NCBI GenBank assembly: GCA_963841895.1
Contig: CAWJEO010000014.1
Span: 38,303-102,302, forward strand
Source: an uncultured Acidobacteriota bacterium
GTDB taxonomy: Bacteria > Acidobacteriota > Vicinamibacteria > Vicinamibacterales > UBA2999
Direction: 5' to 3'
DNA length: 64,000 nucleotides
Below the pieces are notes generated by a model. It saw nothing but the letters and a program-made list of their open reading frames with translations. It made no database searches and had not been told where the DNA came from. Below are positions 7,711-62,466 of this stretch, one piece after another. Position 1 is the stretch's first letter. Each line of letters starts with the position of its first letter. The position numbers were made by a program, and so were the translations under genes.

Positions 7711-7840
7711 GCTAGCGGAAGGTGCCTACGGTGCCAGGGTGCCTACAGTGCCAGGGTGCTGGTGCGTAGTGCTAGCATGTGCCAAGGTCCACCGGTCGCC
7801 TATCAGGTCACCAGCAGCTCTAGGCACCGTAGGCATCCGT
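7711..7840. repeat. tandem-word array with inverted partner (GGTGCCTACGGTGCCAGGGTGCC ... CTAGGCACCGTAGGCATCCGTAGC) between convergent genes
   Basis: read directly; lies between 7697 stop (+) and 7847 stop (-). Confidence 0.6.
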
Positions 7841-7846
7841 AGCCTG

Positions 7847-8770: not shown

Positions 8771-8794
8771 AGGGCAAGCTCCTTTCGAGGAAAA

Positions 8795-8866
8795 GGGATC
8801 AGGGATCGGGGATCGGGGATCAGGGCTGAGAACTCAGGAACTTAGGAACCTCGGAACTCAGGAACC
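8795..8866. repeat. two-part tandem-word element: (GGGATCR)x5 followed by (GGAACTYAGGAAC)-type words
   Basis: GGGATCAGGGATCGGGGATCGGGGATCAGGGCTGAGAACTCAGGAACTTAGGAACCTCGGAACTCAGGAACC; between MBL paralog A start and POP 3' end, and overlaps the last codons of POP (..FLSSEVPKFLSSQP). Confidence 0.7.
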
Positions 8867-11789: not shown

Positions 11790-11912
11790 CGCTACTCTGG
11801 TGCGCGTGCACCGCACCCGTGCACCCGTGCACCTGGCGCACTCCCGTGACCTAGTGCACCTGTGCCCCGCACCGCACCCAGTGCACCTGTCGCACCGGCG
11901 CACCCAGCGCAC
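11790..11912. repeat. tandem GTGCACC-word array (GTGCACCGCACCCGTGCACCCGTGCACCTGGCGCAC...)
   Basis: read directly between MBL paralog B stop (11916) and SDR start (11755). Confidence 0.6.
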
Positions 11913-11915
11913 CTG

Positions 11916-12828
11916 TTACTTGATCGCGTCGTAGATCGACTCGACGTTCGCCAGCAGCCGCGCCTCCGCCGGCGCCGCGTAGCCTGTGTACCTGGCCGGA
12001 ATCGCCCACGCCGCGACAATCTGACCGGGCGACTGCCCCGCCTTCTTGCCGCTCTGCACGAACGCCAGGAAGTCCTTGTTGAAGTCCGAATACTCCTTCA
12101 GATCCGCCATCGTCATCTGAACGCTGTGACCGGTGACGATCGTGTCGACGTTCTTCGACGCCGGCGTGCGCCTTGGCCAGCGTGTCGCCGATCTCGAGAC
12201 CGGTGCCGCCGTTGTTGCCGTCGAGGAGCGGCAAGTTCTTGCCGGAGAAGATGTCGCCGGCGTGCATGATCCGCAGCGCCGGGAACACGACCCACGTGTC
12301 ACCGTCGGTGTGACCGCGGCCGAAGTAATAGAGGTCGATCTGATCCGGGCCGCTCATCAGCGTGAGCTTGTCCTTGTAGGTGCGCTTCGGCAGCCCACGA
12401 CCCTGGTTGTTGTCGAAGATGTTGCCGTTGGTGCCCTTCATCCGCTTCATGCTCGCCGCCGCGTTCTCGTGCGCGACAACGTCAACCGTCGTCGGGAACT
12501 CCACGTTCCCGCTCACGTGATCGCCGTGGGTATGGGTGTTGATGATCATCGTCACCGGCTTGTCGGTCAGCTCTTTGATCTTGTCGAGGATCGGCTGCCC
12601 CCATCCCGGGTTCTTCGTATCGACGACCACGACGCCCTTGCTGGCCACGAAGACCGCGGTGTTGCCGCCACCGCCAGCGCCGCGCAGGACGAAGAAGTTG
12701 TCTTTCAACTTCTCGACTTCGACGACCTTTGGCTTGTCCGCCTGCGCCGCCGGCTGCTGACCACCAGCGACGACCGCCGTCGCCAGACCCACAAACACCA
12801 ACGCGCCCAATACTGTTGCTCGCTTCAC
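11916..12828 (-). CDS. secreted MBL-fold metallo-hydrolase (paralog B), one frame break near 12160-12180
   Basis: N-terminal 240 aa near-identical architecture to 7847-8770 (THTHGDHVSG); C-terminal KNVDTIVTGHS...YTGYAAPAEARL in second frame 11916-12302. Confidence 0.7.
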
Positions 12829-12848: not shown

Positions 12849-12916
12849 AAAGTTCCGAAGTTCCGGGTTCCTATGTTCCTAAGTTCCTGACACCTGACCC
12901 CTGATCCCTCGATCCC
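12849..12916. repeat. two-part tandem-word element (AAGTTCCGAAGTTCCGGGTTCCTATGTTCCTAAGTTCC + TGACACCTGACCCCTGATCCCTCGATCCC), same family as 8795-8866 in opposite orientation
   Basis: read directly; between beta-lactamase-family stop (12920) and MBL paralog B start (12828). Confidence 0.7.
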
Positions 12917-12919
12917 TTC

Positions 12920-20663: not shown

Positions 20664-20768
20664 ATGCGTTGGCGCACTGAGGCAGGGATCAGGGATCAGG
20701 GATCAGGGATCAGGGACGGTCGAGACGTTACGGCGAACTCAGGAACTTAGGAACTCAGGAACCTCGAC
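20664..20768. repeat. two-part tandem-word element: (GGGATCA)x5 + spacer + CAGGAACTTAGGAACTCAGGAACC
   Basis: read directly between convergent ggt (stop 20659) and psuG; psuG reads into it (C-terminal ..SSRFLSS, stop at 20747-20749). Confidence 0.7.
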
Positions 20769-30171: not shown

Positions 30172-30180
30172 ACGCGCGTA

Positions 30181-30280
30181 TCTGGTGATGCTGATGATCT
30201 GGCGATCTGGTGATCTGACCCGCTGATCCGATCGCTCAGTTCACGAGATCACCAGATCAGCAGATCAGCGATCTCTGCGA
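30181..30280. repeat. palindromic tandem-word element (GGTGATCTG family): TCTGGTGATGCTGATGATCTGGCGATCTGGTGATCTG ... GAGATCACCAGATCAGCAGATCAGCGATC
   Basis: read directly between convergent kinase (stop 30171) and zinc-ribbon gene (stop 30281). Confidence 0.7.
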
Positions 30281-38620: not shown

Positions 38621-38692
38621 GAAGGGCACGAAGAAGAACGAAGACACGAAGAAGACGGATCAGGGATCAGCGACTCGAAAGGTCGCTGGTCT
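38621..38692. terminator. tandem-word tract (CGAAGAAGAACGAAGACACGAAGAAGAC, GGATCAGGGATCAG) plus 7-bp stem-loop CAGCGAC-TCGAAAG-GTCGCTG downstream of the large OMP gene
   Basis: read directly. Confidence 0.5.
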
Positions 38693-39211: not shown

Positions 39212-39240
39212 GGGAACCTGGAACGTAGGAACCTGGAACG
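39212..39240. repeat. GGAAC-word element (GGGAACCTGGAACGTAGGAACCTGGAACG) between convergent genes
   Basis: read directly. Confidence 0.55.
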
Positions 39241-44395: not shown

Positions 44396-44401
<6 letters not shown>

Positions 44402-44493
44402 TCTGGCGATGTCGTGATCTGGCGATCTGATGATCTAAAGCCCTGATCCGATCTCCTGGCTCCTCAGATCACCAGATCACCACATCACCACAT
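44396..44493. repeat. palindromic tandem-word element (GGTGATCTG family): GATCTGGCGATGTCGTGATCTGGCGATCTGATGATC ... CAGATCACCAGATCACCACATCACCACATC
   Basis: read directly between convergent kinase and DUF4097 gene. Confidence 0.7.
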
Positions 44494-44503
44494 CGCAAGA
44501 TTC

Positions 44504-47261: not shown

Positions 47262-49058
47262 ATGGCGATGCTGTCGTCGCTGACCAATCGGATCTTCCTC
47301 GCGAGCACGCTCCTGGCCACCGTGTCGATCGGCTTTGCGGTGTACTTCGTCAGCAGCCAGCTGCGCAGCGAGGCCGAGGCCGAACTGCAGCGCGACCTCC
47401 GCGAAGCGGTGACGCTGGTCGAACAGCAGCGGACGAGCCTGTTCGAGACCTTCACGCGAACCGCGCGCCTGATCGCCGACCTGCCCAAGTTCAAGGCCGC
47501 GGTCGAGACGCGCGACGCGCCGACGGTCGAGCCGATCGCGCGCGACTATCAGCAGCAGGCGGGGTCGGATCTGTTTCTGGTCACGGATCCCGACGGCCAC
47601 GTGCTGGCCGCGCTCGGCGGCCTGCCGGTCGCGGTCAGCCGGGCTCTCGACGCGCCGGGCATCGCGCGGGCGCGCGGCGGCACGCCGGCGACGCGTTCTG
47701 GCCGCACCCGAACGGCGTGCTGCAGGTCGTCAGCGTGCCGGTGACGATCGGCCTCGAGCGGCCTGAACTGCTCGGCACGCTCACGATCGGCTACCTGCTC
47801 GACAACGACCGCGCCGCGTCGTTCAAGGCGCTGACCGGCGCCGACGTCGCGTTCGCCATCGACGGCCAGGTGCGCGCGTCGACGCTCGGCCCGGACGCGC
47901 ACGCGCGGCTGGCCGGCGCTGCTCGGCTCCGAGCTGGTCCCGCGCACGATGATCGGCGGCAGCGAGTACGCCGCGCTCGTTCGCGCCCTGCACGCGCCGC
48001 ACGACGAGGCCTCGACCGGCGCCGACCGTGCCGATCGCCATCGTCCTGCGATCGCGCACCGAGCGGATGCGCACGCTCTCGGCGATTCAGACCGGGCTCG
48101 GCCTGGTCGACGCTCGCGACGATCGCTGCTGGCCGCCGCCATCAGCTACGGCGTGGCGCGCACGGTGACGCGGCCGCTCGCGACGATCACCAATCACATG
48201 CGGGACATCGCCTCGACCGGCGACCTGACGCGCAAGCTGCGGCTGAGCGATTCCGTCGAGCTGGCACGACGAAGATACGCGGCTGCTCGCCACGACCTTC
48301 AACACGCTCACCGACTCGGTCGCGCGGTTCCAGCGCGAGGCCGCGCAGCGCGAGCGGCTGTCGTCGCTCGGCCGGATGTCGACGATCGTCGCGCACGAGA
48401 TTCGCAATCCGCTGATGATCGTCAAGGGCGCGCTGCGGCAGCTCACGCGCGACGGCGCGACCGCCGACGACATCCGCGAAGCGGCGGCCGACATCGACGG
48501 CGAGACCGATCGCCTCAATCGCGTGGTCAACGAAGTGCTCGACTTCGCCCGGCCGATTCGCTTCGAGCGCTCGCCGACCGACATCAACGCGCTGTGCCGG
48601 GATGCGGTCAGCGCCGTCGCGGCGGCCGCCGGATCCGACCCGCCGGTCAGCGACCGAGCTCGACCCGACCGTCCCTCCGCTCGAAACCGACAGCGAGAAG
48701 CTGCGCACGGCGCTGGTCAACCTGCTCACCAACGCGCGCCAGGCGGTCGCTGGCGCGAACGTCTGCCGACGGCGCGGAACCGGACGCGCCGGTCACGCTT
48801 GACGACCGGCCGGCTGACCGATCGACCGGGTGGCGATCTCGATCCGCGATCGCGGCGTCGGCATCGGCGCCGACGATCTGCCGCGCATCTTCGATCCATA
48901 CTTCACGACCCGGCGCGCCGGCACCGGCCTCGGCCTGCCGATCGCCAAGAACATCATCGATGCGCTCGGCGGCACTCTCACCGTCGCCAGCACGCCCAGG
49001 CGCCGGCACCCGGATCCGGATCGAGCTGGGCGACGCGCCGGCGGGACGAGCCTCATGA
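47262..49058 (+). CDS. sensor histidine kinase (periplasmic sensor, HAMP, HisKA, HATPase_c); several frame breaks
   Basis: TM1 IFLASTLLATVSIGFAVYFV, H-box MSTIVAHEIRNPL, N-box LVNLLTNARQA, G-boxes IRDRGVGIGADDLPRIFDPYFTT..GTGLGL; stop TGA 49056-49058. Confidence 0.75.
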
Positions 49059-50427
49059 CACCAGGCGGCAGCATTCTTCTCGCCGACGACGAAGAGAAGA
49101 TTCTCAAGACGCTGAGCCGTGCCCTGCGCGAGGACGGGCACGAAGTCGTCACCACGCCGAGCGCGCTGCAGGCGCAGAAGCTGCTCGTCGATCGGTCCTT
49201 CGACCTGCTCGTCATCGATTACCTCATGCCCGAGCGCACCGGGCTCGAAGTGATCCGCGAGCTTGCCGCCACCACGCCGGAAGGCGAGCGGCCGGCGATC
49301 GTCATGATGACGGCGCACGGCACCGTCGAGAGCGCGGTCGAGGCGATGAAGCTCGGCGCCCGCGACTACCTGCAGAAGCCGTTCGAGGTCGAAGAGCTCC
49401 TGGTCACGGTACGGCGGCTGCTCGAAGAGCAGCGGACGCGAACCGGGCTTCGCTATCTGCTCAGCGAGCGCGACGCCGAGTTCAATCACTACGGCCTGGT
49501 CGGGCCGAAGCCGCGCGGTCATGGACGTGATCAAGCGCGCCGAGCTGGTCGCCGAGTCGCGCAGCACGGTCCTGGTGACCGGGCGAAACCGGCACGGGAA
49601 AGGAGCTCGTCGCGCGCGCGATTCACGCCCGCAGCGCGCAGCGCGACATGCCGCTCATCAAGGTGAACTGCGCGGCGATTCCGGAGACGCTGCTCGAGTC
49701 CGAGCTGTTCGGCCACGTGCGCGGCGCCTTCACCGGCGCGTCGTTCACCAAGAAGGGGCGCTTCGCGCTGGCCGACGGCGGGACGATCTTCCTCGACGAA
49801 ATCGGCACCGTCAGCATCACCGTCCAGGCCAAGCTGCTGCGCGTCCTGCAGGATCGCGAGTTCGAGCCGCTCGGCGTCGGAGCGCACGCAGAAGGTGGAC
49901 GTCCGCGTCATCGCCGCGACCAATCGCGATCTGCGGGCCGATGGTGAGCTGCGAGCAAGTTTCAGGAGGATCTCTACTACCGCCTCAACGTCATTCCGAT
50001 CGCCATTCCCCCGCTTCGCGAGCGGCGCGAGGACATTCCGATGCTGGTCGAGCATTTCCTCCGCCGCTTCGCGCGCGACAGCGGCAAGCGAATCGACAGC
50101 GTCGAGCAAGGCGTGATGGAGGAGCTCTCCCGCTACGACTGGCCCGGCAACGTCCGCGAGCTCGAGAACACGATCGAGCGCGCCGTCGTCCTCGCCACCG
50201 ATGCGCGCCTCACCCGCGAGACGGTCTGGCTGATGGGCGCGGTCTCGCCGCCGGTGTCGGGACTGCCGTCGCAGCGGCTGCACGCGAACCTCGAGTGGGC
50301 GGAGCGCGAGACGATTCGCCGCGCGCTCGAACAATCGGGCGGGGTCAAGAAGGACGCCGCCGAGTTGATGGGCATCAGTCAGCGTGCCCTGAGCCACTAC
50401 CTGCAGAAGTACCGGATCGACAACTGA
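49054..50427 (+). CDS. sigma-54-dependent Fis-family response regulator (NtrC-type: REC + AAA+ sigma-54 activator + HTH); one frame break near 49880-49960
   Basis: REC (LLADDE..D; DYLMPE), Walker [15 protein letters not shown] sigma-54 contact motif, ESELFGH, C-terminal [20 protein letters not shown]; ATG overlaps kinase stop (ATGA). Confidence 0.85.
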
Positions 50428-51575: not shown

Positions 51576-52460
51576 GTGACCTCGAGATCACCGCTGCTCG
51601 TTGCGCTTCTGCTCGCCGCCCTCGTTCTTCCCGGCATCCGCGCTCGCGCCAGACACCGGCCGGCGATCCGGCCGGCGCCGCCGCCGGCGGCCCAGCCCGA
51701 GGACGATCCGGATCGCGACATCAACTTCGCACAGCCCGACTTCACCCTGGCGGCGCTCCCGACGACGCTGCGCGTGCCGCCGCTACAAGAGCGCGTTTCG
51801 CGTGACGCACCGGTTCGGCCGCCCGCTCGGCTCCGGCGACTTCGGCGATCTTGCTCGAGGATCTGTTCGGCCTCGACTGCGGCGCCGTCATCGGCCTCGA
51901 GTACCGCTTCGGACTCTTCCGCGGCGCCCAGATCGGAATCCACCGCACATCGATCGACAAGACGATCCAGTTCTTCGGACAGTACAACGTCAAGCAGCAG
52001 CGCGACGGCTTCCCGATTCGGCGTGGCCGTGATGGGCAAGCATCGAAGGCACGAACAACTTCACGAGGACAGCTACTCGCCCGGGCATCGGCGTCGCTGC
52101 TGTCGCGCGAGATTGGCCAGCACGGCGGCGGTCTACATCGAGCCGTTCTGGGTCAACAACACGAACCCGCTGCCCGAGGAGCTCGTCGACGACAACGACA
52201 CGGTCATCATCGGCGCTCGGCGCGCGCCTGCGGGTCCGGCCGACCGTGTACTGCGTCTTCGAAGCCGCGCCGCGGGTCGGCGGCTACGATCCCGGCGTCG
52301 ACGCATGTCAGTTTCGGTATCGAGAAGCGCGCCGGCGGCCACCTGTTCCAGCTCAACTTCTCGAACGGCTTCGGCACGACGCTCGCCCAGATCGCGCGCG
52401 GCGGCTTCAACAACGACGACTGGTATCTCGGCTTCAACATCTCGAGGAAGTTTTTCTGAT
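51576..52460 (+). CDS. putative beta-barrel outer-membrane protein (C-terminal ..LGFNISRKFF-stop); at least three frame breaks
   Basis: signal SPLLVALLLAALVLPGIRARA; alternating strand pattern; terminal Phe. Confidence 0.45.
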
Positions 52461-52936: not shown

Positions 52937-53345
52937 ATGAAGGTTCGCTACGGCATTCTTCTTTCGCTCCTGCTGGCCGCGGCCTGCGGCGGGCAGCAAC
53001 GACAGCAGCGGCGGCGGCACCCCGACGACGCCCCGACGCCGCCGACCACGCCGCCGGTCGCAGACGACGACGATCACCATCACGGCGGCGGGCATCAATC
53101 CGCAGCGCATCACCGTGTCGCCGGGCACGCGGGTCACCTTCGTCAACAACGACACTCGCACCCACGAGATGAACTCGGATCCGCATCCGACCCACGGCGA
53201 CTGCCCGCCGATCGACGATGTCGGATTCCTCTCGCCGGGACAGTCGAAGCAGACCGGCAACCTCACGACCGCGCGGACGTGCGGCTTTCACGATCACAAC
53301 CAGCCGGATACCGCGTCGCTGCGGGGACAGATCATCGTGCAGTAA
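52937..53345 (+). CDS. small cupredoxin-like lipoprotein, copy 2 (TCGFHDHNQ); one frame break after lipobox
   Basis: MKVRYGILLSLLLAAACGG lipobox; ITVSPGTRVTFVNNDTRTHEMNSDPHPTHGDCPPIDDVGFLSPGQSKQTG..TCGFHDHNQPDTASLRGQIIVQ. Confidence 0.55.
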
Positions 53346-53465
53346 GGCCGCGGCCGGTGCGGCCGTCGGGAGCGGCGCGGCAGGCTCCAGCGAGGCCGAC
53401 TCAGTCCGCCGTAGCCTGGGCGGAGGCGGACGGCCAAGCGGCGCCCGGGCGATGAGCGCCGGCCT

Positions 53466-54268
53466 TCAGGCGCCGCGGAAGACGGGTTTCCGCTTCTCGA
53501 GATTGGCGGCGATGCCTTCGCGCGCGTCGTCGCTCTCGAACAGCCGCTGCTGCAGCTCGCGCTCGAGTGCCAGGCCTTCCGAAAAGCCCATTTCCAGTCC
53601 TGACTGCACGGCCCGCTTGATGTGGCCGACGGCCTTGCTGGCGCGGTGCGGCGGCGTGAACTGCGCGGCGTAGTCGAGCACGGCGTCGCGGAACGACTTG
53701 CCCCTTCAGCTCGTCCTCGCCCCACACGTGGGTCACCAGGCCGAGTCCCTTCGCGTCTTCGAAAGACAGCAGCGCGCCGAGCGTCATCAGCTCGATCGCC
53801 TTGGCCTTGCCGACGATCCGGGCCAGCCGCTGGGTGCCGCCGGTGCCGGGCAGCACGCCCAGAGCGACCTCGGGGAGGCCGATCTTGCCGCCGCCCTGTC
53901 GCGCGATCCGGAGATCCGCGGCCATCGCCACCTCGAGCCCGCCGCCGACGGTGTGCCCGTTGAGGGCCGGCGATCACGAGCTTCGGCGTCTGCTCGAGAC
54001 GGTTCATCGTCTCGTTGGCGTGCAGGCAGAAGTAGTACTTGAACGACGGATCGGCGTCCTTGAGCATGCCGATGTTGGCGCCGGCGCAGAAGAACTTCTC
54101 GCCCGCTCCGGTGATGACGATGACGTGCACGGCTGCGTCCATCCGCGCCTCGAGCACGGCACGGTCGATCTCCTGCATCATCTCGTAGGAGTAGGTATTG
54201 GCCGGCGGATCGTTCAGCTCGATGAGGGCAATGCCGTTGCTGGCGGTGTAGGTGATGCGTGTAGGCAT
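53466..54268 (-). CDS. enoyl-CoA hydratase/isomerase (crotonase) family protein; at least two frame breaks
   Basis: IVITGAGEKFFCAGANI oxyanion-hole region; GGGLEVAMAADLRIA; C-terminal ..LEKRKPVFRGA. Confidence 0.7.
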
Positions 54269-54403
54269 ATCGCGATTCTTGGAGTGCGCGGATTCGTGAT
54301 CTGCGAACGCGACGACGCGCATCGTGCACGTCACAACGAGCGGAACGCTCTGCGACGAATCGGCGCAATCCGAGATCTGCGTATCTGCGGTATCTCTGCG
54401 TAC

Positions 54404-55828
54404 TCACGCGTCCGTCCGCACGTACTCGAAGTCGATCGGCAACCGATTGATCCCACGCGGCGGCGGCGCGATGTAGTTGGCGAACTGGCCCGGCTTGTAG
54501 ACCGGGATCGACTGGATGCTGCGCAGGTAGTCCTTGTCCGCCGTCGTCGGCAGCCATTCGCTCTTCCGGCGCTCCCATTCGTCCGCGCTCATTGGCTGTC
54601 CCGCCGGATCGAAGTGGCGGCCGGCGAACACGCCGATCTGGCGATTGAACTTGCGCGACGGCAGGTAGATCCGATCGGTCATGCCGTTCGCTTCGAGCAC
54701 GCGCTTGTTCCAGCGATCGACGCCGGCCTGGCAGTCGCCGACATACCAGTCGCGCAGCACCTCGTTGAGGGCGTTGCGCATCGGGATCTCCTGACGATCC
54801 GGCGCGCCCTGCTCGGTCATGAGGTCGAGCAGATACACGCTGTCCTCGAGCACGTGGTCGTCGTCGTACTTGTCTTCCTCGGCGCGGCCCTTGAGACCGT
54901 TGGAGAAGTAGTTGGCGGCGTTGCTCGACACTTCGCTGCCGTGCAGGTCGAGGCTCTGGCTGAACCAGAAGTTGACGAACTTCTGGATGAGCGGGATGTC
55001 GATACCGCCGACCTTGCGGACGTCCTCGGAGAAGCCGGCTTCCTTCATCAACTGGCAGGTGCGCTCGAGGATGCGGGCGATGCCGCTCTCGCCGACGAAC
55101 ATGTGGTGCGCCTCTTCGGTCAGCATGAAGCGGGTCGTCCGCGACAGCGGATCGAGCGAGCTCTCCGACAACGAGAGGAGCTGCGACTTGCCGTCGCGAT
55201 CGGTGAACATCGTGAAGGCGAAGAAGTCGAGCCAGGTGTCGATCGGCTCGTTGAACGCCTCGAGCATGCGCGGCGAATCGGTGCCGCTGCGGCGCTCGAG
55301 CAGCGCCTCCGCTTCTTCGCGGCCATCACGCCCGAAGTACGAGTGCAGCAGGTAGACCATCGCCCAGAGGTGGCGGCCTTCCTCGACGTTGACCTGGAAG
55401 AGGTTGCGCAGGTCGTACAGGCTCGGGCAATGCGCGCCGAGCATGCGCTGCTGCTCGACGCTCGCGGGTTCGGTGTCGCCCTGGAGGACGATCAGCCGGC
55501 GAAGGGGATTGCGGAATTCGCCGGGCACTTCCTGCCACACCGGCTGGCCCTTGAAGTCGCCAAAGCCGATGCGTCGATCGGCGGTCGGCTCGGCCAGGAA
55601 AATGCCCCAGCGATAGTCGGGCAGCTTGACGTAGTCGAAGTGCGCCCAGCCCGCCGAATCGACGCTCACCGCCGTCCGCAGGTAAACCTGATGCTGATCC
55701 TGGAACCCCTGCGGTCCCATGTCGCGCCACCAGTCGAGATAGGCCGGCTGCCAGTGCTCGAGCGCGCGCAGAAGGCGCTTGTTCCCCGAGAGGCCGACGT
55801 TGTTGGGAATGCGTTCGTTGAGCTGCAT
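54404..55828 (-). CDS. boxB: benzoyl-CoA 2,3-epoxidase (benzoyl-CoA oxygenase) component B, di-iron
   Basis: 474-aa intact ORF with BoxB-characteristic N-terminus MQLNERIPNNVGLSGNKRLLRALEHWQPAYLDWW and di-iron EExH contexts. Confidence 0.85.
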   Translation of the reverse strand: MQLNERIPNNVGLSGNKRLLRALEHWQPAYLDWWRDMGPQGFQDQHQVYLRTAVSVDSAGWAHFDYVKLPDYRWGIFLAEPTADRRIGFGDFKGQPVWQEVPGEFRNPLRRLIVLQGDTEPASVEQQRMLGAHCPSLYDLRNLFQVNVEEGRHLWAMVYLLHSYFGRDGREEAEALLERRSGTDSPRMLEAFNEPIDTWLDFFAFTMFTDRDGKSQLLSLSESSLDPLSRTTRFMLTEEAHHMFVGESGIARILERTCQLMKEAGFSEDVRKVGGIDIPLIQKFVNFWFSQSLDLHGSEVSSNAANYFSNGLKGRAEEDKYDDDHVLEDSVYLLDLMTEQGAPDRQEIPMRNALNEVLRDWYVGDCQAGVDRWNKRVLEANGMTDRIYLPSRKFNRQIGVFAGRHFDPAGQPMSADEWERRKSEWLPTTADKDYLRSIQSIPVYKPGQFANYIAPPPRGINRLPIDFEYVRTDA

Positions 55829-55843
55829 GAGGCTGAATCCTTG

Positions 55844-55940
55844 TCAGTTACAAGTTGCAAGTTCACAAGTTCAAAGTTAGAGTTCGGCGGACAGCGTTCG
55901 ACCGCTCCAACTTTGAACTTGGAACTTGGAACTTGTAACT
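55844..55940. repeat. roughly 36-bp-stem hairpin built from CAAGTTC words (GTCAGTTACAAGTTGCAAGTTCACAAGTTCAAAGTT ... AACTTTGAACTTGGAACTTGGAACTTGTAACTGTC) between boxC stop and boxB RBS
   Basis: read directly; boxB SD AAGGA lies just downstream. Confidence 0.65.
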
Positions 55941-55942
55941 GT

Positions 55943-57609
55943 CTAGGTTCTTTTCCAGTCGAACGTCGGCCTTCCCTCACGGCCGTAGACCGTGAGCGCG
56001 CCGCGCTCGCCGACGGCGTTGGGACGCTGGAAGATCCAGTTCTGCCACGCGGTGAGGCGGCCGAAGATCTTCGTCTCCATCGTCTCGGGGCCGGCGAAGC
56101 GGAGGTTGGCTTCCATTCCGGTCAACGCGTCGGGCGAGAATGCCGTGCGCTCTTCGATGGCGAGGCGGACTTCGTCCTCCCAGTCGATGTCGTCCGGCGC
56201 GAACGACACGAGGCCGGCGGCGAGCGCTTCCTCCGCGTCGAACGGCCCGTCGTGCGCGAGGACCTCGTCGACGTGACCTGGCTCTCCGAGGAAGCGCGTC
56301 TGCAGCCGGGTGAGGCCGGTGCTCATCGGGTACGACCCGCCGTTCATCACCGACAACTGGATCGTATTCGCTTCGTCCGGGTGCGCGAGCATGTACGAGC
56401 GATCCGCGGCGAGCGCGAGCTCGAACAGCGTCCCGGCGAAGGCGTTGCCGGGCTCGATCAGCGCGAAGAGGCTGCGGGCGGTGAGGTCGAGCCGCTTCAG
56501 CGTCCGCCGGATGTGGCCGATGATCTCGCGCACCAGCCAGTGATCGCGATGCGCGTCGAGCGTTCGATCGACATCGAGGACGGCCTGCGGATCGCCGGTT
56601 GCGCGCAGCAGAATCGTGCCGATCTCGGGCTCGTTCAGCCGCAACCGGAGGAGCGCATCGTCGAACTCGCGAAACGCCCGCAGGGCCCACGACTGATCGC
56701 CGGCCTGCTGGAACGCGTCCGGCGAGTCGGGCTGCGGACTGTCGGGGGCGCTGATCGTGAGCTCGCAGACCCGCTTCGCGCGATCGATCGAGCCGCGCAC
56801 GTATCGATACTGAATGGTGTCGCCGTCAATGGCCGGATTGAGCGGTGCCAGCGAAATCCCGGGACCGGTTGCGGGCCGATCGGATTCGGCCGCCATCGCA
56901 GTGCGCGCGTTCGGTCACGGCGCTCCTGAAACTGACGGCTCGGCACGACTTTGTCGACAAGCCGCCATTCGACGGCTCGCTTGCCCCGCACGCCTTCAGT
57001 CAGCGTGCTGAACGCATCGGCGAGATCGCGGCGCACCTTGCGCTTGTCGACGACGCGCGTGAGACCGCCGGTTCCCGGCAGCACGCCGAGGAGCGGCGTT
57101 TCCGGCAGTGCCACCGAGGCATTGCCATCGTCCACCAGGTAGATCTCATCGCAGGCGAGCGCGAGCTCGTAGCCACCGCCGGCGCAGATGCCGTTGAGCG
57201 CGGCCAGGAACTTGACGCCGCTCGATCGGCTCATGTCTTCCATCCCGATCCGCGTCTCGTTGGTGAACTTGCAGAAGTTCACCTTGAAGCCGTGGCTGGA
57301 CGAGCCGAGCATGAAGATGTTGGCGCCGGCGCAGAAGATGCGCGGCTTCAAGCTGGTGACGACGACGGCGTGGACCTCGGGATGCTCGAAGCGCAGCCGC
57401 TGCAGCGCGTCGGCAAGCTCGATGTCGACGCCGAGATCGTACGAGTTGAGCTTCAGCTTGTAGTCGGCGGGACGGAGGCCGGCATCCTCCTTGACGTCCA
57501 TGGCCAGCGTCGCCACCGCGCCGTCCACCGAGAGTTTCCAGTGCTTGTAGCGATCCGGCGAGGTTTCGAAGGACAACGAGGGCGCGGGCGTCTGGAGAGT
57601 GTGCTCCAC
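55943..57609 (-). CDS. boxC: benzoyl-CoA-dihydrodiol lyase (2,3-epoxybenzoyl-CoA dihydrolase); one frame break near 56890-56920
   Basis: N-terminal crotonase-like domain (VTSLKPRIFCAGANIFML; LNGICAGGGYELALACD) in 56635-57609 frame; C-terminal BoxC domain in 55943-56896 frame. Confidence 0.8.
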
Positions 57610-57626
57610 GCCGCGAGTCTACACCA

Positions 57627-57645
57627 GTTTAAACGAGCGTTCAAA
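57627..57645. promoter_or_regulatory. candidate TetR operator: inverted repeat TTTAAACG-AG-CGTTCAAA in the boxC/tetR divergent intergenic region
   Basis: 8-bp arms with one mismatch; TATAAA box at 57653-57658. Confidence 0.45.
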
Positions 57646-57666
57646 TCCGTGGTATAAACGCACGAG

Positions 57667-58278
57667 GTGGCAAAACCCGCAAACGGCGCCGATCGCCGCA
57701 TCGAGATTCTCAAGAGCGCTGCCGCCGCGTTCCGCCGCCGCGGCTATCACGGCGCGAGCGTCGACGAGATCGCCTCGGCGCTCGAGATGACGAAGGGGAA
57801 TCTCTATTACTACTTCGAGAACAAGGAAGAGATCCTCTACGCCTGCCACGATTACTCGCTCGACGTGCTGCTGGCGCTGATGGCGGAAGTGCAATCCGAA
57901 CCCTCGACGCCGCCGGACGAGAAGCTGCGCAAGCTGATTCTTGCGTTCATCCACACGATGCTGGACGAACTGCAGGGCACCGCGCTGACGCTCGACCTGC
58001 AGGCGCTGTCGCCGGCGCTCCTCAAGCGGATCATCGCCAAGCGCGATCGCTTCGACCGCGGCCTGCGCGAGATCATCCAGCAGGGCATCGATCAACAGCT
58101 GTTCCGCGCCGGCGACCCCAAGATGATTGGCTTTGCGATGATGGGCGCGGTCAACTGGATCACGAAGTGGTTCGATCCCGCTGGACCGATGTCGTCAGAA
58201 CAGATTGGCCAGCGGTTCGCCGATTACCTCGTCGGAGGACTGTTGAAGAGTTCTGCAGAACTAAGAACGAAGAACTAA
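57667..58278 (+). CDS. TetR/AcrR-family transcriptional regulator
   Basis: HTH GYHGASVDEIASALEMTKGNLYYYFENKEEIL; 203 aa intact; divergent from boxC. Confidence 0.85.
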   Translation: MAKPANGADRRIEILKSAAAAFRRRGYHGASVDEIASALEMTKGNLYYYFENKEEILYACHDYSLDVLLALMAEVQSEPSTPPDEKLRKLILAFIHTMLDELQGTALTLDLQALSPALLKRIIAKRDRFDRGLREIIQQGIDQQLFRAGDPKMIGFAMMGAVNWITKWFDPAGPMSSEQIGQRFADYLVGGLLKSSAELRTKN

Positions 58279-58298
58279 GGTCTTAGTTCTTGTTCGTC
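58256..58298. terminator. hairpin GAACTAAGAACGAAGAACTAAG-G-TCTTAGTTCTTGTTCG (same word family as 333-396), bidirectional between tetR and MBL hydrolase
   Basis: read directly; encodes the last codons of TetR (..AELRTKN-stop). Confidence 0.6.
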
Positions 58299-59026: not shown

Positions 59027-59083
59027 AATCTGGTGATCGTGGCTGAGTCTGGTGATCTGGTGATCTGGTGATCGAGTGACGTC
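59027..59083. repeat. GGTGATCTG-family tandem-word array (AATCTGGTGATCGTGGCTGAGTCTGGTGATCTGGTGATCTGGTGATCGAG)
   Basis: read directly; left boundary of a 530-nt apparently non-coding region. Confidence 0.6.
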
Positions 59084-59610: not shown

Positions 59611-59676
59611 GAGATCACCAGCATCGCCAGAACCAACATCACCACATCGCAACATCTCCACATCGCGACATCTCAG
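59611..59676. repeat. inverted partner array (GAGATCACCAGCATCGCCAGAACCAACATCACCACATCGCAACATCTCCACATCGCGACATC)
   Basis: read directly; right boundary of the non-coding region, just upstream of lipA. Confidence 0.55.
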
Positions 59677-59693: not shown

Positions 59694-60597
59694 GTGATCG
59701 AATCGCCTTTGACGTTCGTGCGGCCCCGGGAGCCGAAGCCCGAGTGGCTGAAGGTCCGCGCGCCGGGATCCGAGAACTATCTCCGGCTCCGCGGCATCAT
59801 GCGCGGGCTGAAGCTGAACACGGTCTGCGAGGACGCGCACTGCCCCAACATCGGCGAGTGCTGGCATCACGGGACCGCGACGTTCATGATCCTCGGCGAC
59901 ATCTGCACGCGCGCCTGCTCCTACTGCGCAGTCGCGCACGGACGGCCGACCGAGCTCGATCTCGACGAGCCGCGGCGCGTCGCCGAAGCGGTCAAGGCCA
60001 TGGGCCTGAAGTACGCCGTCGTCACATCGGTCGATCGCGACGATCAGGCCGACGGCGGCGCCGGAATCTTCGCCCAGACGATTCACGAGATTCGCGCGGT
60101 CATGCCGGACACGCGCGTCGAGGTGCTGATCCCCGATTTCAAGGGCGAGGCCGGGCCGCTGCAGACGGTCCTCGACGCGCGGCCGGATGTGCTCAACCAC
60201 AACACCGAGACGGTGCCGCGGCTGTATCGGATGGCGCGATCGGGCGGCAAGTACGCGCGGACGCTCGAACTGCTCGATCGGGCCAGGACCTACGCGCCGG
60301 CGATTCCGACCAAGACCGGCCTGATGGTCGGCCTCGGCGAGGAGCACGACGAGCTCGTGCAGGTGTTCCGCGATCTCCGCGGCGTTGGCGTCTCGATCCT
60401 GACCATCGGCCAGTACCTGCGCCCGTCGCCGGATCACGCGCCGATGACCCGCTATTACCACCCCGACGAGTTCGCGCGCGCTCAAGCGCGCGGCGATGGA
60501 CCTGGGCTTCGTGCACGTCGAGGCCGGCCCGCTCGTCCGCAGCTCCTACCACGCGCACGAACAGGCTGACGCCTACGACCTCGCACACGGCCGGTGA
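59694..60597 (+). CDS. lipA: lipoyl synthase; one frame break near 60480
   Basis: CEDAHCPNIGEC and CTRACSYCAV cluster motifs; C-terminal DLGFVHVEAGPLVRSSYHA in +1 frame, stop 60595-60597. Confidence 0.85.
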
Positions 60598-61992: not shown

Positions 61993-62437
61993 ACGTTCGT
62001 GCTATCGACGGCGGATTCAGTATCGCGACACCGATGCGTCGGGCATCGCGCACTTCACCATCTTCTTCCTGCTGTGCCGAGGAAGCCGAGCACGCGATGT
62101 GGCGCGAGCACGGTCTGAGCGTCGAGCCGCGCGAGACCGACATCGGCTGGCCGCGGCGTGTCGGCGTCGTTCGAGTTCCTGCGCCCGCTCAGGTTCGAAG
62201 ACGAAGTCGAGGTGCAGTTGCGCCTGATCGGGCGAACGTCCAAAACCCTGCCGCTATCAGGCCGTCATCGTCCACGACGGCAAAGTCGCGGCCGCAGGGA
62301 CGATGACAACGATCTGCGTCGAGAAGCGTCCGGGCCGGCCGCTCCGCGCGATTGCCATCCCGGCAGAAATCGCCGGACCGCTTCACAGTCGTCGCGCCGA
62401 TCGAGGTTCCCGGCCTCAGAGGGTCTCGATCCCCTGA
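61976..62437 (+). CDS. 4HBT/YbgC-type hotdog acyl-CoA thioesterase; heavily frame-disrupted
   Basis: RIQYRDTDASGIAHFTIFF ... SFEFLRPLRFEDEVEVQLRLIGRT ... AVIVHDGKVAAAGTMTTICV in three frames. Confidence 0.5.
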
Positions 62438-62466
62438 CCCCCGATCCCTGATCCCTGACCCCTACG
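62427..62466. repeat. GATCCC-word element (GATCCCCTGACCCCCGATCCCTGATCCCTGACCCC) between convergent genes
   Basis: read directly. Confidence 0.55.

Follow-up and report, generated by a model that had tools for sequence, protein, structure and literature searches.

A hairpin of heptamer repeats between boxC and boxB belongs to a class of short-period intergenic arrays abundant in Vicinamibacterales

When a very stable hairpin fills the space between two genes of a catabolic operon, is it a regulatory device of that operon or a local representative of a broader class of repeats? This question is raised by the boxC-boxB junction of a Vicinamibacterales-like (Acidobacteriota) genome with a GC content of 67%, which we analyzed within a window of 64 kb, that is, the whole stretch of DNA considered here. 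The initial annotation of this locus described a hairpin of about 36 bp, made of CAAGTTC words, at 55844-55940 and suggested that it acts as a partial terminator or attenuator, or else as a determinant of RNA processing or stability, and could set the BoxC:BoxB stoichiometry. The structural part of this interpretation stands, whereas the functional part, as stated, does not; in our best reading, the element is one of many fast-evolving repeat hairpins of the lineage and not a dedicated regulator of the box genes. Both genes are encoded on the minus strand, and the features of the junction are the following.

54404..55828, minus strand: boxB (benzoyl-CoA 2,3-epoxidase subunit B), full-length match to TIGR03225, ATG at 55826-55828
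55838..55842, minus strand: putative boxB Shine-Dalgarno sequence AAGGA, separated by 2 nt from the stem and by 9 nt from the AUG, recognized from the sequence only
55845..55882, minus strand: 3' arm of the hairpin (mRNA sense), units CUCUAACUU UGAACUU GUGAACUU GCAACUU GUAACUG, from the folds
55883..55904, minus strand: GC-rich apical region, a small inner stem of 4+2 bp plus loop, from the folds
55905..55941, minus strand: 5' arm of the hairpin (mRNA sense), 7-nt tandem units ACAGUUAC AAGUUCC AAGUUCC AAGUUCA AAGUUGG, from the dot-bracket folds
55943..57645, minus strand: boxC (2,3-epoxybenzoyl-CoA dihydrolase), NCBIfam TIGR03222, stop codon TAG at 55943-55945

The two genes are co-directional and presumably co-transcribed, and a spacer of 114 nt separates the boxC stop from the boxB start; a TetR-family gene is located upstream of boxC. 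The full-length match of BoxB to TIGR03225 scores 735 bits, against a cut-off of 499, and the protein shows 84-91% amino acid identity to proteins from Vicinamibacterales MAGs; no relatives closer than about 91-93% were found in the genome or metagenome collections. The 67% GC of the box cluster had pointed to a proteobacterium such as Azoarcus or Burkholderia, but this origin was rejected in view of the Vicinamibacterales MAGs as nearest relatives. The reading frame of boxC switches near 56872-56896, so that the match to TIGR03222 is split over two ORFs (profile positions 2-219 and 226-547), and a tblastn search with the BoxC protein of a relative (L002) recovered amino acids 34-294 in one frame and 283-599 in another. 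Given that at least five genes of the window contain frame switches relative to their orthologues, assembly indels could account for the bulges of one nucleotide in the stem; that the hairpin as a whole is an artefact is refuted by homologous hairpins in independent assemblies. Two ORFs that run across the hairpin, 53801-56929 on the plus strand and 55666-55980 on the minus strand, were dismissed as spurious ORFs of high-GC DNA, since boxB and boxC, both encoded on the minus strand, match their profiles at equivalog level.

The hairpin (55845-55941) fills 97 of the 114 nt of the spacer and consists of CAAGTTC/GGAACTT heptamers. Along the mRNA, the boxC UAG (55943-55945) is followed by 1 nt, the 5' arm, the apical region, the 3' arm, 2 nt, AAGGA, 9 nt and the boxB AUG (55828-55826). 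The arms form 36 outer base pairs, with two single mismatches or bulges, and the apical region contributes 6 more. The predicted RNA free energy is -63.4 kcal/mol for 136 nt (z -9.9); the 107-nt core reaches -57.3 in the sense and -59.8 in the antisense orientation (z -11), so both strands fold equally well, and -37.8 when folded as DNA, and none of 200 shuffled sequences was as stable. Thus, the coordinates, stem length, repeat word and placement inside a co-directional gene pair, just before the Shine-Dalgarno sequence (with a gap of 2 nt to AAGGA), that were initially reported all agree with the sequence and the folds, and the claim of high stability holds as well. Tandem Repeats Finder (TRF) detected period 7 in both arms, with 4.6 copies at 55909-55940 (5' arm) and 4.7 copies at 55846-55879 (3' arm), and the inverted repeats of the hairpin (I1-I7) can pair in several registers. 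The word CAAGTTCNAAGTT has 7 matches in the 64 kb, compared to 1.2 expected; five of these are in the hairpin, and the two located elsewhere contain 2 mismatches. The spacer has a GC content of 46%, and the stem is AT-rich. The last unit of the 3' arm includes the exact heptamer UAACUGA (TCAGTTA on the plus strand, 55844-55850), in forward orientation and 13 nt upstream of the boxB AUG. In an extended fold, the AGG of the Shine-Dalgarno sequence pairs with a CCU immediately before the boxC stop codon; this pairing is weak and specific to the window, the corresponding helix (helix 1 of the alignment described below) being 72% paired and formed by other bases in the relatives.

If the hairpin were a dedicated device of the box operon, one could look for it at the same junction in other genomes. 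The boxC-boxB spacers of relatives were extracted by a motif-anchored procedure, which yielded 118 related loci with a measurable spacer. Its length ranges from -7 to 191 nt, and in 28 of the 118 loci, about a quarter, the two genes either overlap, in TAATG or ATGA junctions, or have no more than 5 nt between them. A homologous hairpin of the CAGTTAC type is present in the five nearest relatives (L001, L002, L005, L006 and L050), with the unit sequence and the copy number varying between the orthologous spacers, and this change is gradual. In the same BoxB clade, two genomes (L081 and L083) retain only remnants of the hairpin, and in five others (L061, L085, L007, L010 and L082) it is absent or replaced, with no hairpin at all in L061 and L085. 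In other clades, the spacer contains hairpins built from the unrelated units GGTGCCT, GACGAATT, GGTCTCT and GCACAAAAG, whereas in four genomes (L098, L144, L039 and L090) it contains long direct arrays that form no hairpin. The independent hairpins start 0-6 nt from the stop codon (21 nt in one case) and end 0-22 nt from the start codon. The UAACUGA heptamer upstream of the boxB AUG is found also in L001 and L050, and in L001 the end of boxC is locally duplicated beside the hairpin. Hence the element is evolutionarily labile.

The two arms change in concert. In the alignment of the six orthologues (A1), 83% of the cells are paired, compared to 20-41% in slid controls, and both sides have changed in 14 of the 32 pairs, a number reached by none of 500 shuffles. 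The apical region, by contrast, has no conserved columns in this alignment, and only a short GCGGTCGA-like stretch is common to the window and L050. Co-variation of the arms over some 9-10% of BoxB divergence is also the pattern that would be expected of a selected RNA structure. A strand-specific RNA signature was found neither in this alignment nor in 22 long hairpins located in co-directional spacers: the alignment contains about 12 G.U and about 11 A.C cells (tallied by hand from the pair list) and the 22 hairpins contain 22 G.U, 28 A.C and 75 transversion mismatches, so that neither set shows an excess of G.U over A.C, by a test that has low power for stems this long.

To what, then, does the element belong? 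A survey of the window together with 80 related loci (0.99 Mb), in which arrays with at least 2.8 copies were counted, showed that short-period (7-8 nt) intergenic arrays are abundant in Vicinamibacterales and other Acidobacteriota. For period 7, there are 52 noncoding and 7 coding arrays, and for period 8, 42 and 7, respectively, which puts about 88% of the arrays with these two periods in noncoding DNA; only 2 arrays of period 10 were detected. The array density is 13.3 per 100 kb in the acidobacterial loci as opposed to 1.0 in non-acidobacterial box loci (p = 6e-5), and the repeat unit families recur across genomes. Of 120 noncoding arrays, 64 are accompanied, within 250 nt, by an inverted array of 2 or more units; for 40 of them, this partner has 3 or more units. 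After merging, there are 28 hairpin loci, with 17 in co-directional and 9 in convergent spacers, 1 at a contig edge and only 1 in a divergent spacer, a depletion in divergent spacers with p = 0.017. The window itself contains more than 10 other 7-8-nt arrays, and the following hairpins with repeat arms.

332-396: hairpin with arms of AAGAAC units, z -5.9
30180-30273: hairpin with arms of GATCTGGT units, z -3.5
44399-44494: hairpin with arms of GATCTGGT units, z -9.8
58257-58290: hairpin with repeat arms, in the window

Arrays with GAAC- or GTTC-containing units are found at 332-396, 8830-8865, 12850-12888, 39213-39239 and 58257-58279, and arrays of 4-5 AGGGATC units at 8794, 20683 and 62431. 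The location of the hairpins between stop and start codons and their rarity in divergent spacers could reflect selection for a role at the RNA level and not just tolerance. A search of the literature on repeats in Acidobacteria or Vicinamibacter returned nothing specific.

Taken together, these observations suggest that the boxC-boxB element is probably a palindromic microsatellite similar to the short tandemly repeated repetitive (STRR) sequences, transcribed within the boxCB mRNA, with an effect that is at most modest and not conserved. We infer both the generating mechanism and the consequences for the RNA along the following lines. Two inverted 7-nt arrays of the CAGTTAC/CAAGTTC type flank a variable, GC-rich centre; replication slippage would expand and contract the units in each arm, and either intrastrand template switching (quasi-palindrome correction) or weak selection on the ability to fold could keep the arms complementary. 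In the boxC-boxB mRNA, the hairpin would loop out about 97 nt and so place the boxC stop codon, 1 nt from its 5' base, beside the boxB ribosome-binding site, 2 nt from its 3' base. A ribosome terminating on boxC would then be expected to unwind the stem at its base, beside the boxB Shine-Dalgarno sequence, and the 36-bp duplex, well above the length of about 20 bp or more that characterizes RNase III substrates, could plausibly be cleaved by this enzyme or serve as a barrier to 3'-exonucleases.

Perhaps, as in the second option of the initial annotation, the hairpin is an adaptive element of mRNA processing or stability, in which RNase III cleavage, a block to 3'-to-5' exonucleases, or both result in different half-lives of boxC and boxB and a tuned BoxC:BoxB ratio. 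We regard this as rather improbable, although the duplex exceeds two helical turns and is very stable, its position is intercistronic, its arms co-vary in six genomes, the repeat hairpins of the lineage favour the 3' ends of genes and gene junctions while avoiding divergent spacers, and an equivalent role has been proposed for the STRR hairpins of hupSL (PMC2670836). The hairpin is not conserved among box operons and is lost or reduced even within its clade, direct arrays that do not fold fill the same spacer in other genomes, there is no excess of G.U over A.C on the sense strand in the sets compared above, and the two strands fold equally well. Translational coupling, whereby the stem sequesters the boxB Shine-Dalgarno sequence until a ribosome finishing boxC opens its base, so that the strict coupling of the relatives is preserved across 114 nt, appears unlikely. 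The many relatives with overlapping stop and start codons suggest that coupling is ancestral, and the geometry is suitable in the window, where the base of the stem is flanked by the boxC stop and the Shine-Dalgarno sequence, with the AGG/CCU pairing in the extended fold, as well as in the hairpins of L122, L128, L142 and L054, where the 3' arm lies 0-6 nt from the AUG and the binding site is therefore inside the stem. However, the Shine-Dalgarno pairing is weak and window-specific, and in L001, L002 and L050 a distance of 10-15 nt separates the Shine-Dalgarno sequence from the stem; the spacers of L098, L144 and L039 accommodate long direct arrays without structure, and the fold is therefore not required; and the frame switch in boxC, if real, would abolish coupling altogether.

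That the element works as a partial intrinsic terminator or an attenuator of the operon, as originally proposed, is very unlikely. The stem is indeed very stable and directly follows a stop codon, and since canonical terminators are not detectable above chance in this region, non-canonical hairpins might in principle take over this role in the lineage: a scan of the 50-64 kb region yielded no site at the hairpin and 6 terminator-like sites compared to 7.3 expected, while promoter counts in the same region were at or below chance. Nevertheless, an intrinsic terminator combines a GC-rich stem with a U run within 0-2 nt, whereas this stem is AT-rich and is followed by ACAAGGAUUCAGCC, with no U run; there is neither a leader peptide nor an alternative antiterminator fold; boxB, which encodes the oxygenase of the pathway, comes immediately downstream; and in some relatives boxC and boxB overlap. 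The proposal that partial termination or attenuation sets the BoxC:BoxB stoichiometry is not supported as stated, given the lack of a T/U run, the lack of conservation and the membership of the element in a lineage-wide class of repeats. It is also highly improbable that the hairpin is a mobile or recombinogenic DNA element, REP/BIME-like or MITE-like, or a cruciform or protein-binding array acting at the DNA level, with the neighbouring TetR-family regulator or a nucleoid protein recognizing GTTC/GAAC cores spaced 7 bp apart. The complementarity is strand-symmetric, other arrays of the window also have GAAC/GTTC in their units, the same unit families are seen in different genomes, and the TetR-family gene is upstream of boxC. 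Yet a second copy is lacking in the 64 kb, as are REP heads of the GTAG or CGTC type and terminal inverted repeats accompanied by a target duplication, and the gradual change of units and copy number among orthologues fits in-situ evolution of a microsatellite and not insertion. TetR operators are normally found in the promoter region and not between two structural genes, where this site is. As for individual mobile families, a REP/BIME assignment was rejected for an element of about 97 nt that has no GTAG/CGTC head and no second copy in the window, and the search for MITE features, which covered the window only, showed no direct repeat flanking the single-copy hairpin. No Rfam family matched the window at the gathering thresholds, and near the hairpin, at E <= 10, only a chance-level miRNA match was obtained, scoring 13 bits where the threshold is 70 (E = 9.6).

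The reading of the element as a non-conserved palindromic microsatellite has several implications. Many close relatives can do without the hairpin, so that a role as a regulator of the boxC-boxB junction matters little, and the finding carries little weight for the regulation of benzoyl-CoA degradation. More generally, hairpins of heptamer and octamer repeats, which are known mainly from cyanobacteria, Xanthomonas and Beggiatoaceae and have no proven function, are also abundant in Vicinamibacterales, an abundance for which we found no description in the searchable literature. The Vicinamibacterales are a soil lineage that is uncultured and common worldwide. For tests of the effect of such elements on operon mRNAs, the boxC-boxB junction provides a natural series, from overlapping genes through remnants and direct arrays to five independent kinds of repeat hairpins and a co-varying stem of 36 bp. 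For annotation, there is a warning here that very stable intercistronic hairpins in these genomes should not be taken for gene-specific attenuators.

A bolder and quite doubtful conjecture is that 7-8-nt arrays are a general operon punctuation in Vicinamibacterales, and perhaps in Acidobacteriota more widely, with unit families such as GATCACCA, AGGGATC, AGAAGGC and CAGTTAC/TAACTGA read by a dedicated nucleic-acid-binding factor. If so, inverted arrays would be factor-independent signals for transcript ends, processing or coupling in genomes without canonical terminators; the binding factor would be common to, or convergent on, the one postulated for the cyanobacterial STRR and the TAACTGA repeats of Beggiatoaceae; and the boxC-boxB hairpin would be a working instance, its foldability selected, as the arm co-variation in six genomes might then indicate.

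It remains to compare the element, interpreted as an STRR-like microsatellite, with known systems. An intrinsic terminator likewise places a stable stem-loop right after a stop codon but differs from the AT-rich, 36-bp stem described here, which has no U-tract and is followed, 2 nt on, by the Shine-Dalgarno sequence of a co-directional gene. REP/BIME elements stabilise mRNA inside operons, as in E. coli malE-malF, and the likeness consists in an intercistronic palindrome within a polycistronic mRNA for which differential segment stability is proposed, in essence, the stoichiometry idea of the initial annotation. However, REPs are 20-40 nt long, are present in hundreds of copies and are associated with RAYT transposases, and they possess a conserved head, with GTAG and CGTC defining two large super-families (PMC3733652), whereas the boxC-boxB element spans about 97 nt, is composed of tandem units, is headless and does not recur in the window.

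The closer parallels are heptameric. The quadruplex-forming GGGNATC repeats (Rehm et al. 2015, PMC4692102) are located in intergenic DNA, with a depletion between divergent ORFs; they differ from one close relative to the next, and some copies are inverted. Together with the likewise quadruplex-forming GGGGAYT repeats (Xanthomonas, Nostoc), they share with the acidobacterial arrays the location between aligned ORFs and the variation in length and sequence; their inverted copies may form stem-loops, and the AGGGATC arrays of the window are exactly of this kind. The boxC-boxB unit, in contrast, is not G-rich and forms no quadruplex but a Watson-Crick hairpin. Heptamers are the commonest long simple sequence repeats (SSRs) in bacteria and have been attributed to polymerase slippage (Mrazek 2007, as cited in PMC4679880). 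The boxC-boxB array resembles these SSRs, and the TAACTGA repeats in particular, in the intergenic 7-nt period with 2-6 copies per set, the frequent position right upstream of start codons, the sporadic phylogenetic distribution and slippage as the proposed origin; the 3' base of the hairpin even carries a sequence identical to UAACUGA, a likeness at the level of the motif. The TAACTGA sets of Beggiatoaceae, Cyanobacteria and Bacteroidetes are, however, nearly all direct (169 direct and 1 indirect; MacGregor 2015) and have one fixed heptamer, as opposed to the inverted pair and the variable CAAGTTC and CAGTTAC units seen here.

Among the known systems are also the STRR heptamer hairpins in the hupS-hupL intergenic region of Anabaena, Nostoc and Lyngbya, whose proposed role is in transcript stability or translational coupling (PMC2670836). 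STRR are cyanobacterial, whereas the element described here comes from the box operon of an acidobacterium with 67% GC, in a group where 8-nt units are nearly as common as 7-nt ones; cross-species co-variation of the arms, demonstrated for the boxC-boxB hairpin, was not found among the reports on hupSL. At the same time, the units of the two systems are similar, with ttgtcag and ccactga in Nostoc (PMC2408588) and CAGTTAC and CAGTTGT in the boxC-boxB element. As in heptameric SSR and STRR-like repeats, whose units measure 5-11 nt and typically 7 nt, the units are present in at least three head-to-tail copies, in noncoding DNA, in many arrays, and vary between relatives. Finally, in both cases, inverted 7-nt units fold the spacer between two subunit genes that are, in the box operon presumably, co-transcribed, and further copies are scattered over other spacers.

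The stop codon UAG of boxC and the AUG of boxB are separated by a spacer of 114 nt, read on both strands, which on the mRNA strand runs as 1 nt, 5' arm, apical part, 3' arm, 2 nt, the putative Shine-Dalgarno sequence AAGGA and 9 nt ahead of the AUG. The features are as follows.

55943-56896 and 56635-57609, minus: boxC, two ORFs over which the TIGR03222 match is split; stop UAG at 55943-55945
55941-55905, minus: hairpin 5' arm, ACAGUUAC-AAGUUCC-AAGUUCC-AAGUUCA-AAGUUGG
55904-55883, minus: apical part, GC-rich
55882-55845, minus: hairpin 3' arm, CUCUAACUU-UGAACUU-GUGAACUU-GCAACUU-GUAACUG
54404-55828, minus: boxB, ORF of full-length BoxB (TIGR03225, 735 bits vs a cut-off of 499); AUG at 55826-55828

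Both arms are period-7 arrays of 4.6-4.7 copies (TRF) and, being tandem repeats, pair in several registers. The predicted fold comprises 36 outer pairs with two single-nucleotide irregularities and 6 apical pairs; its free energy, which the initial annotation had proposed as a check, is -63.4 kcal/mol over 136 nt (z = -9.9). For the 107-nt core, the values are -57.3 (sense) and -59.8 (antisense), with z = -11 and none of 200 shuffles folding as well, and folded as DNA the hairpin reaches -37.8 kcal/mol. The word CAAGTTCNAAGTT occurs five times in the hairpin, and its 7 matches in the 64-kb window compare with 1.2 expected, the only two outside the hairpin carrying 2 mismatches each. Sequence, fold and word count thus bear out the position, stem length, CAAGTTC word and relation to the Shine-Dalgarno sequence reported in the initial annotation, and its observation as a whole is confirmed. 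A 1042-codon antisense open frame (53801-56929, plus strand) spans boxB, the hairpin, which is stop-free in that frame, and boxC; we regard it as a spurious high-GC ORF rather than a gene.

The BoxC match falls in two ORFs because of a frame switch near 56872-56896. Compared with the orthologues in L002, one of the related loci around boxB from other genomes (L-numbers throughout), at least five window genes are frame-switched (boxC at 56872-56896; 57464-58248, 49007-50421, 59694-60573 and 51699-52456), so that either the assembly is indel-prone or the genes are decaying as pseudogenes. Given such an assembly, the 1-nt bulges of the stem are uncertain; the existence of the hairpin is unaffected because independent assemblies carry homologous hairpins. 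The closest relatives of the window BoxB are in Vicinamibacterales (Acidobacteriota) MAGs (84-91% identity), and metagenome contigs reach 91-93%, with no identical protein on record. Among the neighbouring genes, the crotonase-like ORF at 53294-54334, which lies downstream of boxB, aligns with Pfam ECH_1 over no more than the first 93 of the 251 profile positions. A divergent gene for a TetR-family regulator (TetR_N and TetR_C_24; 57464-58278, plus strand) lies upstream of boxC, its N-terminal similarity (57464-57646) overlapping the boxC 5' end on the other strand; local synteny is different in L002, where the orthologue occupies the opposite strand ~1.6 kb downstream of boxB, at 3 kb from the start of that gene.

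A canonical terminator is ruled out by the missing T-run 3' of the stem, by the AT-rich spacer (46% GC vs 67% for the genome) and by chance-level matches to consensus terminators, of which 6 were found in the 50-64 kb part of the window vs 7.3 expected, with zero at the hairpin. No Rfam family matched, and no hallmarks of a MITE were seen in the window. REP elements are 20-40 nt long with a GTAG or CGTC head (PMC3733652), whereas the present element has neither head, spans 97 nt and is unrepeated in sequence in the 64-kb window.

Across relatives, the boxC-boxB spacer ranges from -7 to 191 nt, and in 28 of the 118 loci with a measurable spacer, roughly a quarter, the stop and start codons overlap or adjoin (TAATG type). 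In some relatives the spacer is short and unstructured; in others it holds purine-rich direct arrays directly upstream of the AUG, such as GAAGGCA x4-5 (L003, L013, L021, L090), or long direct arrays (L144, L039 and L098, where an 11-mer x11 fills the spacer); the remaining spacers contain repeat-armed hairpins. In the sense orientation, AGAAGGC x4-5 is seen in the spacers of L003, L013, L018, L021, L041, L090 and L091 and also at L056 7428-7462, the arrays lying directly between a stop and the next start codon. In a neighbor-joining tree, the window BoxB belongs to a clade with L001, L002, L081, L050, L061, L006, L082, L005, L085, L007, L083 and L010. Hairpins of the CAGTTAC/CAAGTTC type are present in the window, L001, L002, L005, L006 and L050 (dG -41 to -70, z -4 to -9.5); L081 retains a 46-nt remnant (CCAGTTGACAACTGGCAACTGA) and L083 a miniature form (GTTCAAGGTTCAAGGAACTT), the 150-nt hairpin of L082 (~-97 kcal/mol) is unrelated and not built of repeats, and the hairpin is absent from the spacers of L061, L085, L007 and L010. 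In other clades, the spacer hairpins are built of unrelated units, namely, GGTGCCT (L017, L121, L156), GACGAATT (L054, L122, L132), GGTCTCT/AGAGACC (L128, L142, L147) and, in Blastocatellia, GCACAAAAG (L072). In sixteen measured spacer hairpins, the distance from the stop codon to the 5' base is 0-6 nt, except in L001 with 21 nt, and that from the 3' base to the start codon is 0-22 nt. In L001 (5866-5910), a degenerate copy (AAAAGAACCCTG) of the ~12 nt that end boxC, stop codon included (AAGAGAACCTAG), lies 11 nt further downstream and directly precedes the hairpin, a local duplication adjoining the repeat element.

Alignment of six orthologous spacers yielded a consensus hairpin of 32 pairs in which 83% of the cells are paired, compared with 20-41% in slid controls, and both sides have changed in 14 of the 32 pairs, a count reached by none of 500 column shuffles. 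Arm complementarity has therefore been kept while the arm sequence drifted; the apical part shows no conservation. By our own tally, this alignment holds ~12 G.U vs ~11 A.C cells, stems this long giving the test little power, and an unbiased arm-vs-arm alignment covering 22 long hairpins that lie between co-directional genes gave, also at low power, 22 G.U, 28 A.C and 75 transversion mismatches. Neither set yields a positive RNA-strand signature in this low-power comparison of G.U with A.C, and the sense and antisense strands of the hairpin fold equally well. The G.U/A.C balance and the equal folding argue against a specifically sense-strand RNA constraint, and the pattern is consistent with a process that acts on DNA without regard to strand or with weak selection.

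Most entries in the TRF table for the window are short arrays of period 7 or 8 nt. The arrays fall into three groups: hairpins with tandem-unit arms, composite non-complementary arrays and single arrays.

332-396: hairpin with AAGAAC/GTTCTT units, z -5.9, between two co-directional minus-strand genes
58257-58290: hairpin with AAGAAC/GTTCTT heptamers, where the TetR-family gene and a gene for a metal-dependent hydrolase converge
30180-30273 (z -3.5) and 44399-44494 (z -9.8): hairpins with GATCTGGT/GATCACCA units
7721-7842: hairpin with arms of 17-nt units (GGTGCCTACAGTGCCAG), dG -60, z -2.7
8794-8865 (+), 20683-20762 (+) and 12850-12917 (reverse orientation): composite arrays [AGGGATC]4-5 + [GGAACTNA]4, non-complementary
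62427-62463 and 38650-38670: partial composite arrays
11821-11916: GCACC-rich array, 26-nt period, 3.7 copies
54375-54395: 7-8-nt array downstream of boxB

The first two hairpins have a GAAC/GTTC core in common with the boxC-boxB units. The GATC-containing octamers GATCTGGT/GATCACCA, which form long hairpins with z down to -9.8, also occur in the window as two inverted arrays 540 nt apart (59028-59079 and 59617-59674) and are common to many Vicinamibacterales genomes (L005 2791, L008 947, L021 3576, L026 3596, L030 2902, L040 1364, L056 2916, L058 2774/3624), several at a similar place 2-3 kb upstream of boxB. In the composite arrays, also seen at L013 3499-3625 and L016 3508-3634, a G-rich 7-mer array comes first and an 8-mer array whose units contain GAAC ([GGAACTNA] x4) comes 5-20 nt later; relatives have GTCGGGA or CGGGAGC in the 7-mer part and AGAACCYC x9-11 in the 8-mer part. 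The spacer 3' of boxB likewise carries 7-8-nt arrays in many genomes (~7414-7620 in L008, L013, L023, L031, L033, L040, L051, L054, L056 and L070), often starting at or a few nt from the stop, with inverted pairs in L013 (CGGGAGT/TCCCGAC), L051, L040 and L070. Upstream of boxB, an array of >25 copies of the octamer GTGCCCGA reaches the contig end in L004 (1-223); L032 has GGGATCG x14 (2756-2853).

A census took in the window and 80 related loci, 0.99 Mb in all, and admitted arrays of 2.8 copies or more that scored 36 or higher; its figures are approximate because the gene calls were crude (GC3-based). It counted, noncoding vs coding, 3 and 9 arrays of period 6 nt, 52 and 7 of 7 nt, 42 and 7 of 8 nt, 26 and 13 of 9 nt, and 2 and 0 of 10 nt. 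The acidobacterial loci carry 13.3 arrays per 100 kb vs 1.0 in eight non-acidobacterial box loci (p = 6e-5). An inverted partner lies within 250 nt for 64 of the 120 noncoding 7-9-nt arrays at two or more units and for 40 at three or more. The 28 merged hairpin loci occupy 17 co-directional, 9 convergent and 1 divergent spacer and 1 contig edge, a depletion between divergent genes (1/28 vs 20% of intergenic length, p = 0.017).

Heptamers are the commonest long simple-sequence repeats of bacteria, usually explained by polymerase slippage (Mrazek 2007 as summarised in PMC4679880; also PMC4692102). An evolving microsatellite would produce what is seen here: units differ by degrees from one orthologue to the next, copies within one arm have become uniform (GACGACC x7 in the right arm of L006), some arrays have shrunk to remnants, and other units have arisen independently in the same spacer. 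The hairpin is very probably a member of a class of STRR-like palindromic microsatellites. Intrastrand template switching at quasi-palindromes, a process established in E. coli, could maintain the complementarity of the arms; the alternative is selection for a foldable transcript. The transcribed stem would loop out 97 nt, placing the stop codon of boxC and the ribosome-binding site of boxB on two sides of the helix base, which a ribosome terminating on boxC would open; the 36-bp duplex could also plausibly be cut by RNase III and hold up exonucleases. All these effects are physically reasonable, and chances appear evenly balanced that the hairpin measurably affects boxC or boxB mRNA or translation. 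In the extended fold of the window, AGG of the Shine-Dalgarno sequence pairs with CCU just before UAG, a pairing unconserved among the aligned orthologues. Because this junction tolerates long unstructured arrays and zero-length spacers just as well, any effect would in our view be at most modest and would not account for the existence of the element; maintenance by selection for such an effect seems unlikely. The interpretation in the initial annotation is partly supported: the structure and placement that it described stand, and its box-specific attenuator or device setting the BoxC:BoxB stoichiometry is unsupported.

The element is a heptamer-repeat (STRR-like) hairpin, a known type, in a new phylum and a new operon. 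More useful than the element itself are the repeat system that extends across the lineage and the series of natural alleles at the boxC-boxB junction. The part of the literature that was covered contained no account of such repeats from Acidobacteria or Vicinamibacterales, which is not proof of novelty. The class shares its genomic habits with GGGNATC heptamer arrays, which are intergenic, located between aligned ORFs and rarely between divergent ones, variable among relatives and sometimes inverted (PMC4692102); the AGGGATC x4-5 arrays of the window are of this type, and the G-rich part of the composite arrays is similar to the GGGNATC repeats that form quadruplexes in Xanthomonas and Nostoc and, like them, tends to have about four units (PMC4692102). 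TAACTGA direct repeats precede start codons in Beggiatoaceae, Cyanobacteria and Bacteroidetes (MacGregor, PMC4679880); the 3' base of the boxC-boxB hairpin holds this exact heptamer, which gives the two an apparent resemblance, and the AGAAGGC arrays have the look of a Shine-Dalgarno-like sequence repeated several times over, as described for the Beggiatoaceae repeats. The Nostoc units ttgtcag and ccactga (PMC2408588) appear similar to CAGTTGT and CAGTTAC of the boxC-boxB hairpins. The nearest known counterpart is the STRR hairpin of the hupS-hupL spacer in heterocystous cyanobacteria, in which 7-bp repeats are likewise intercistronic and a role in stability or translational coupling has been proposed (PMC2670836).
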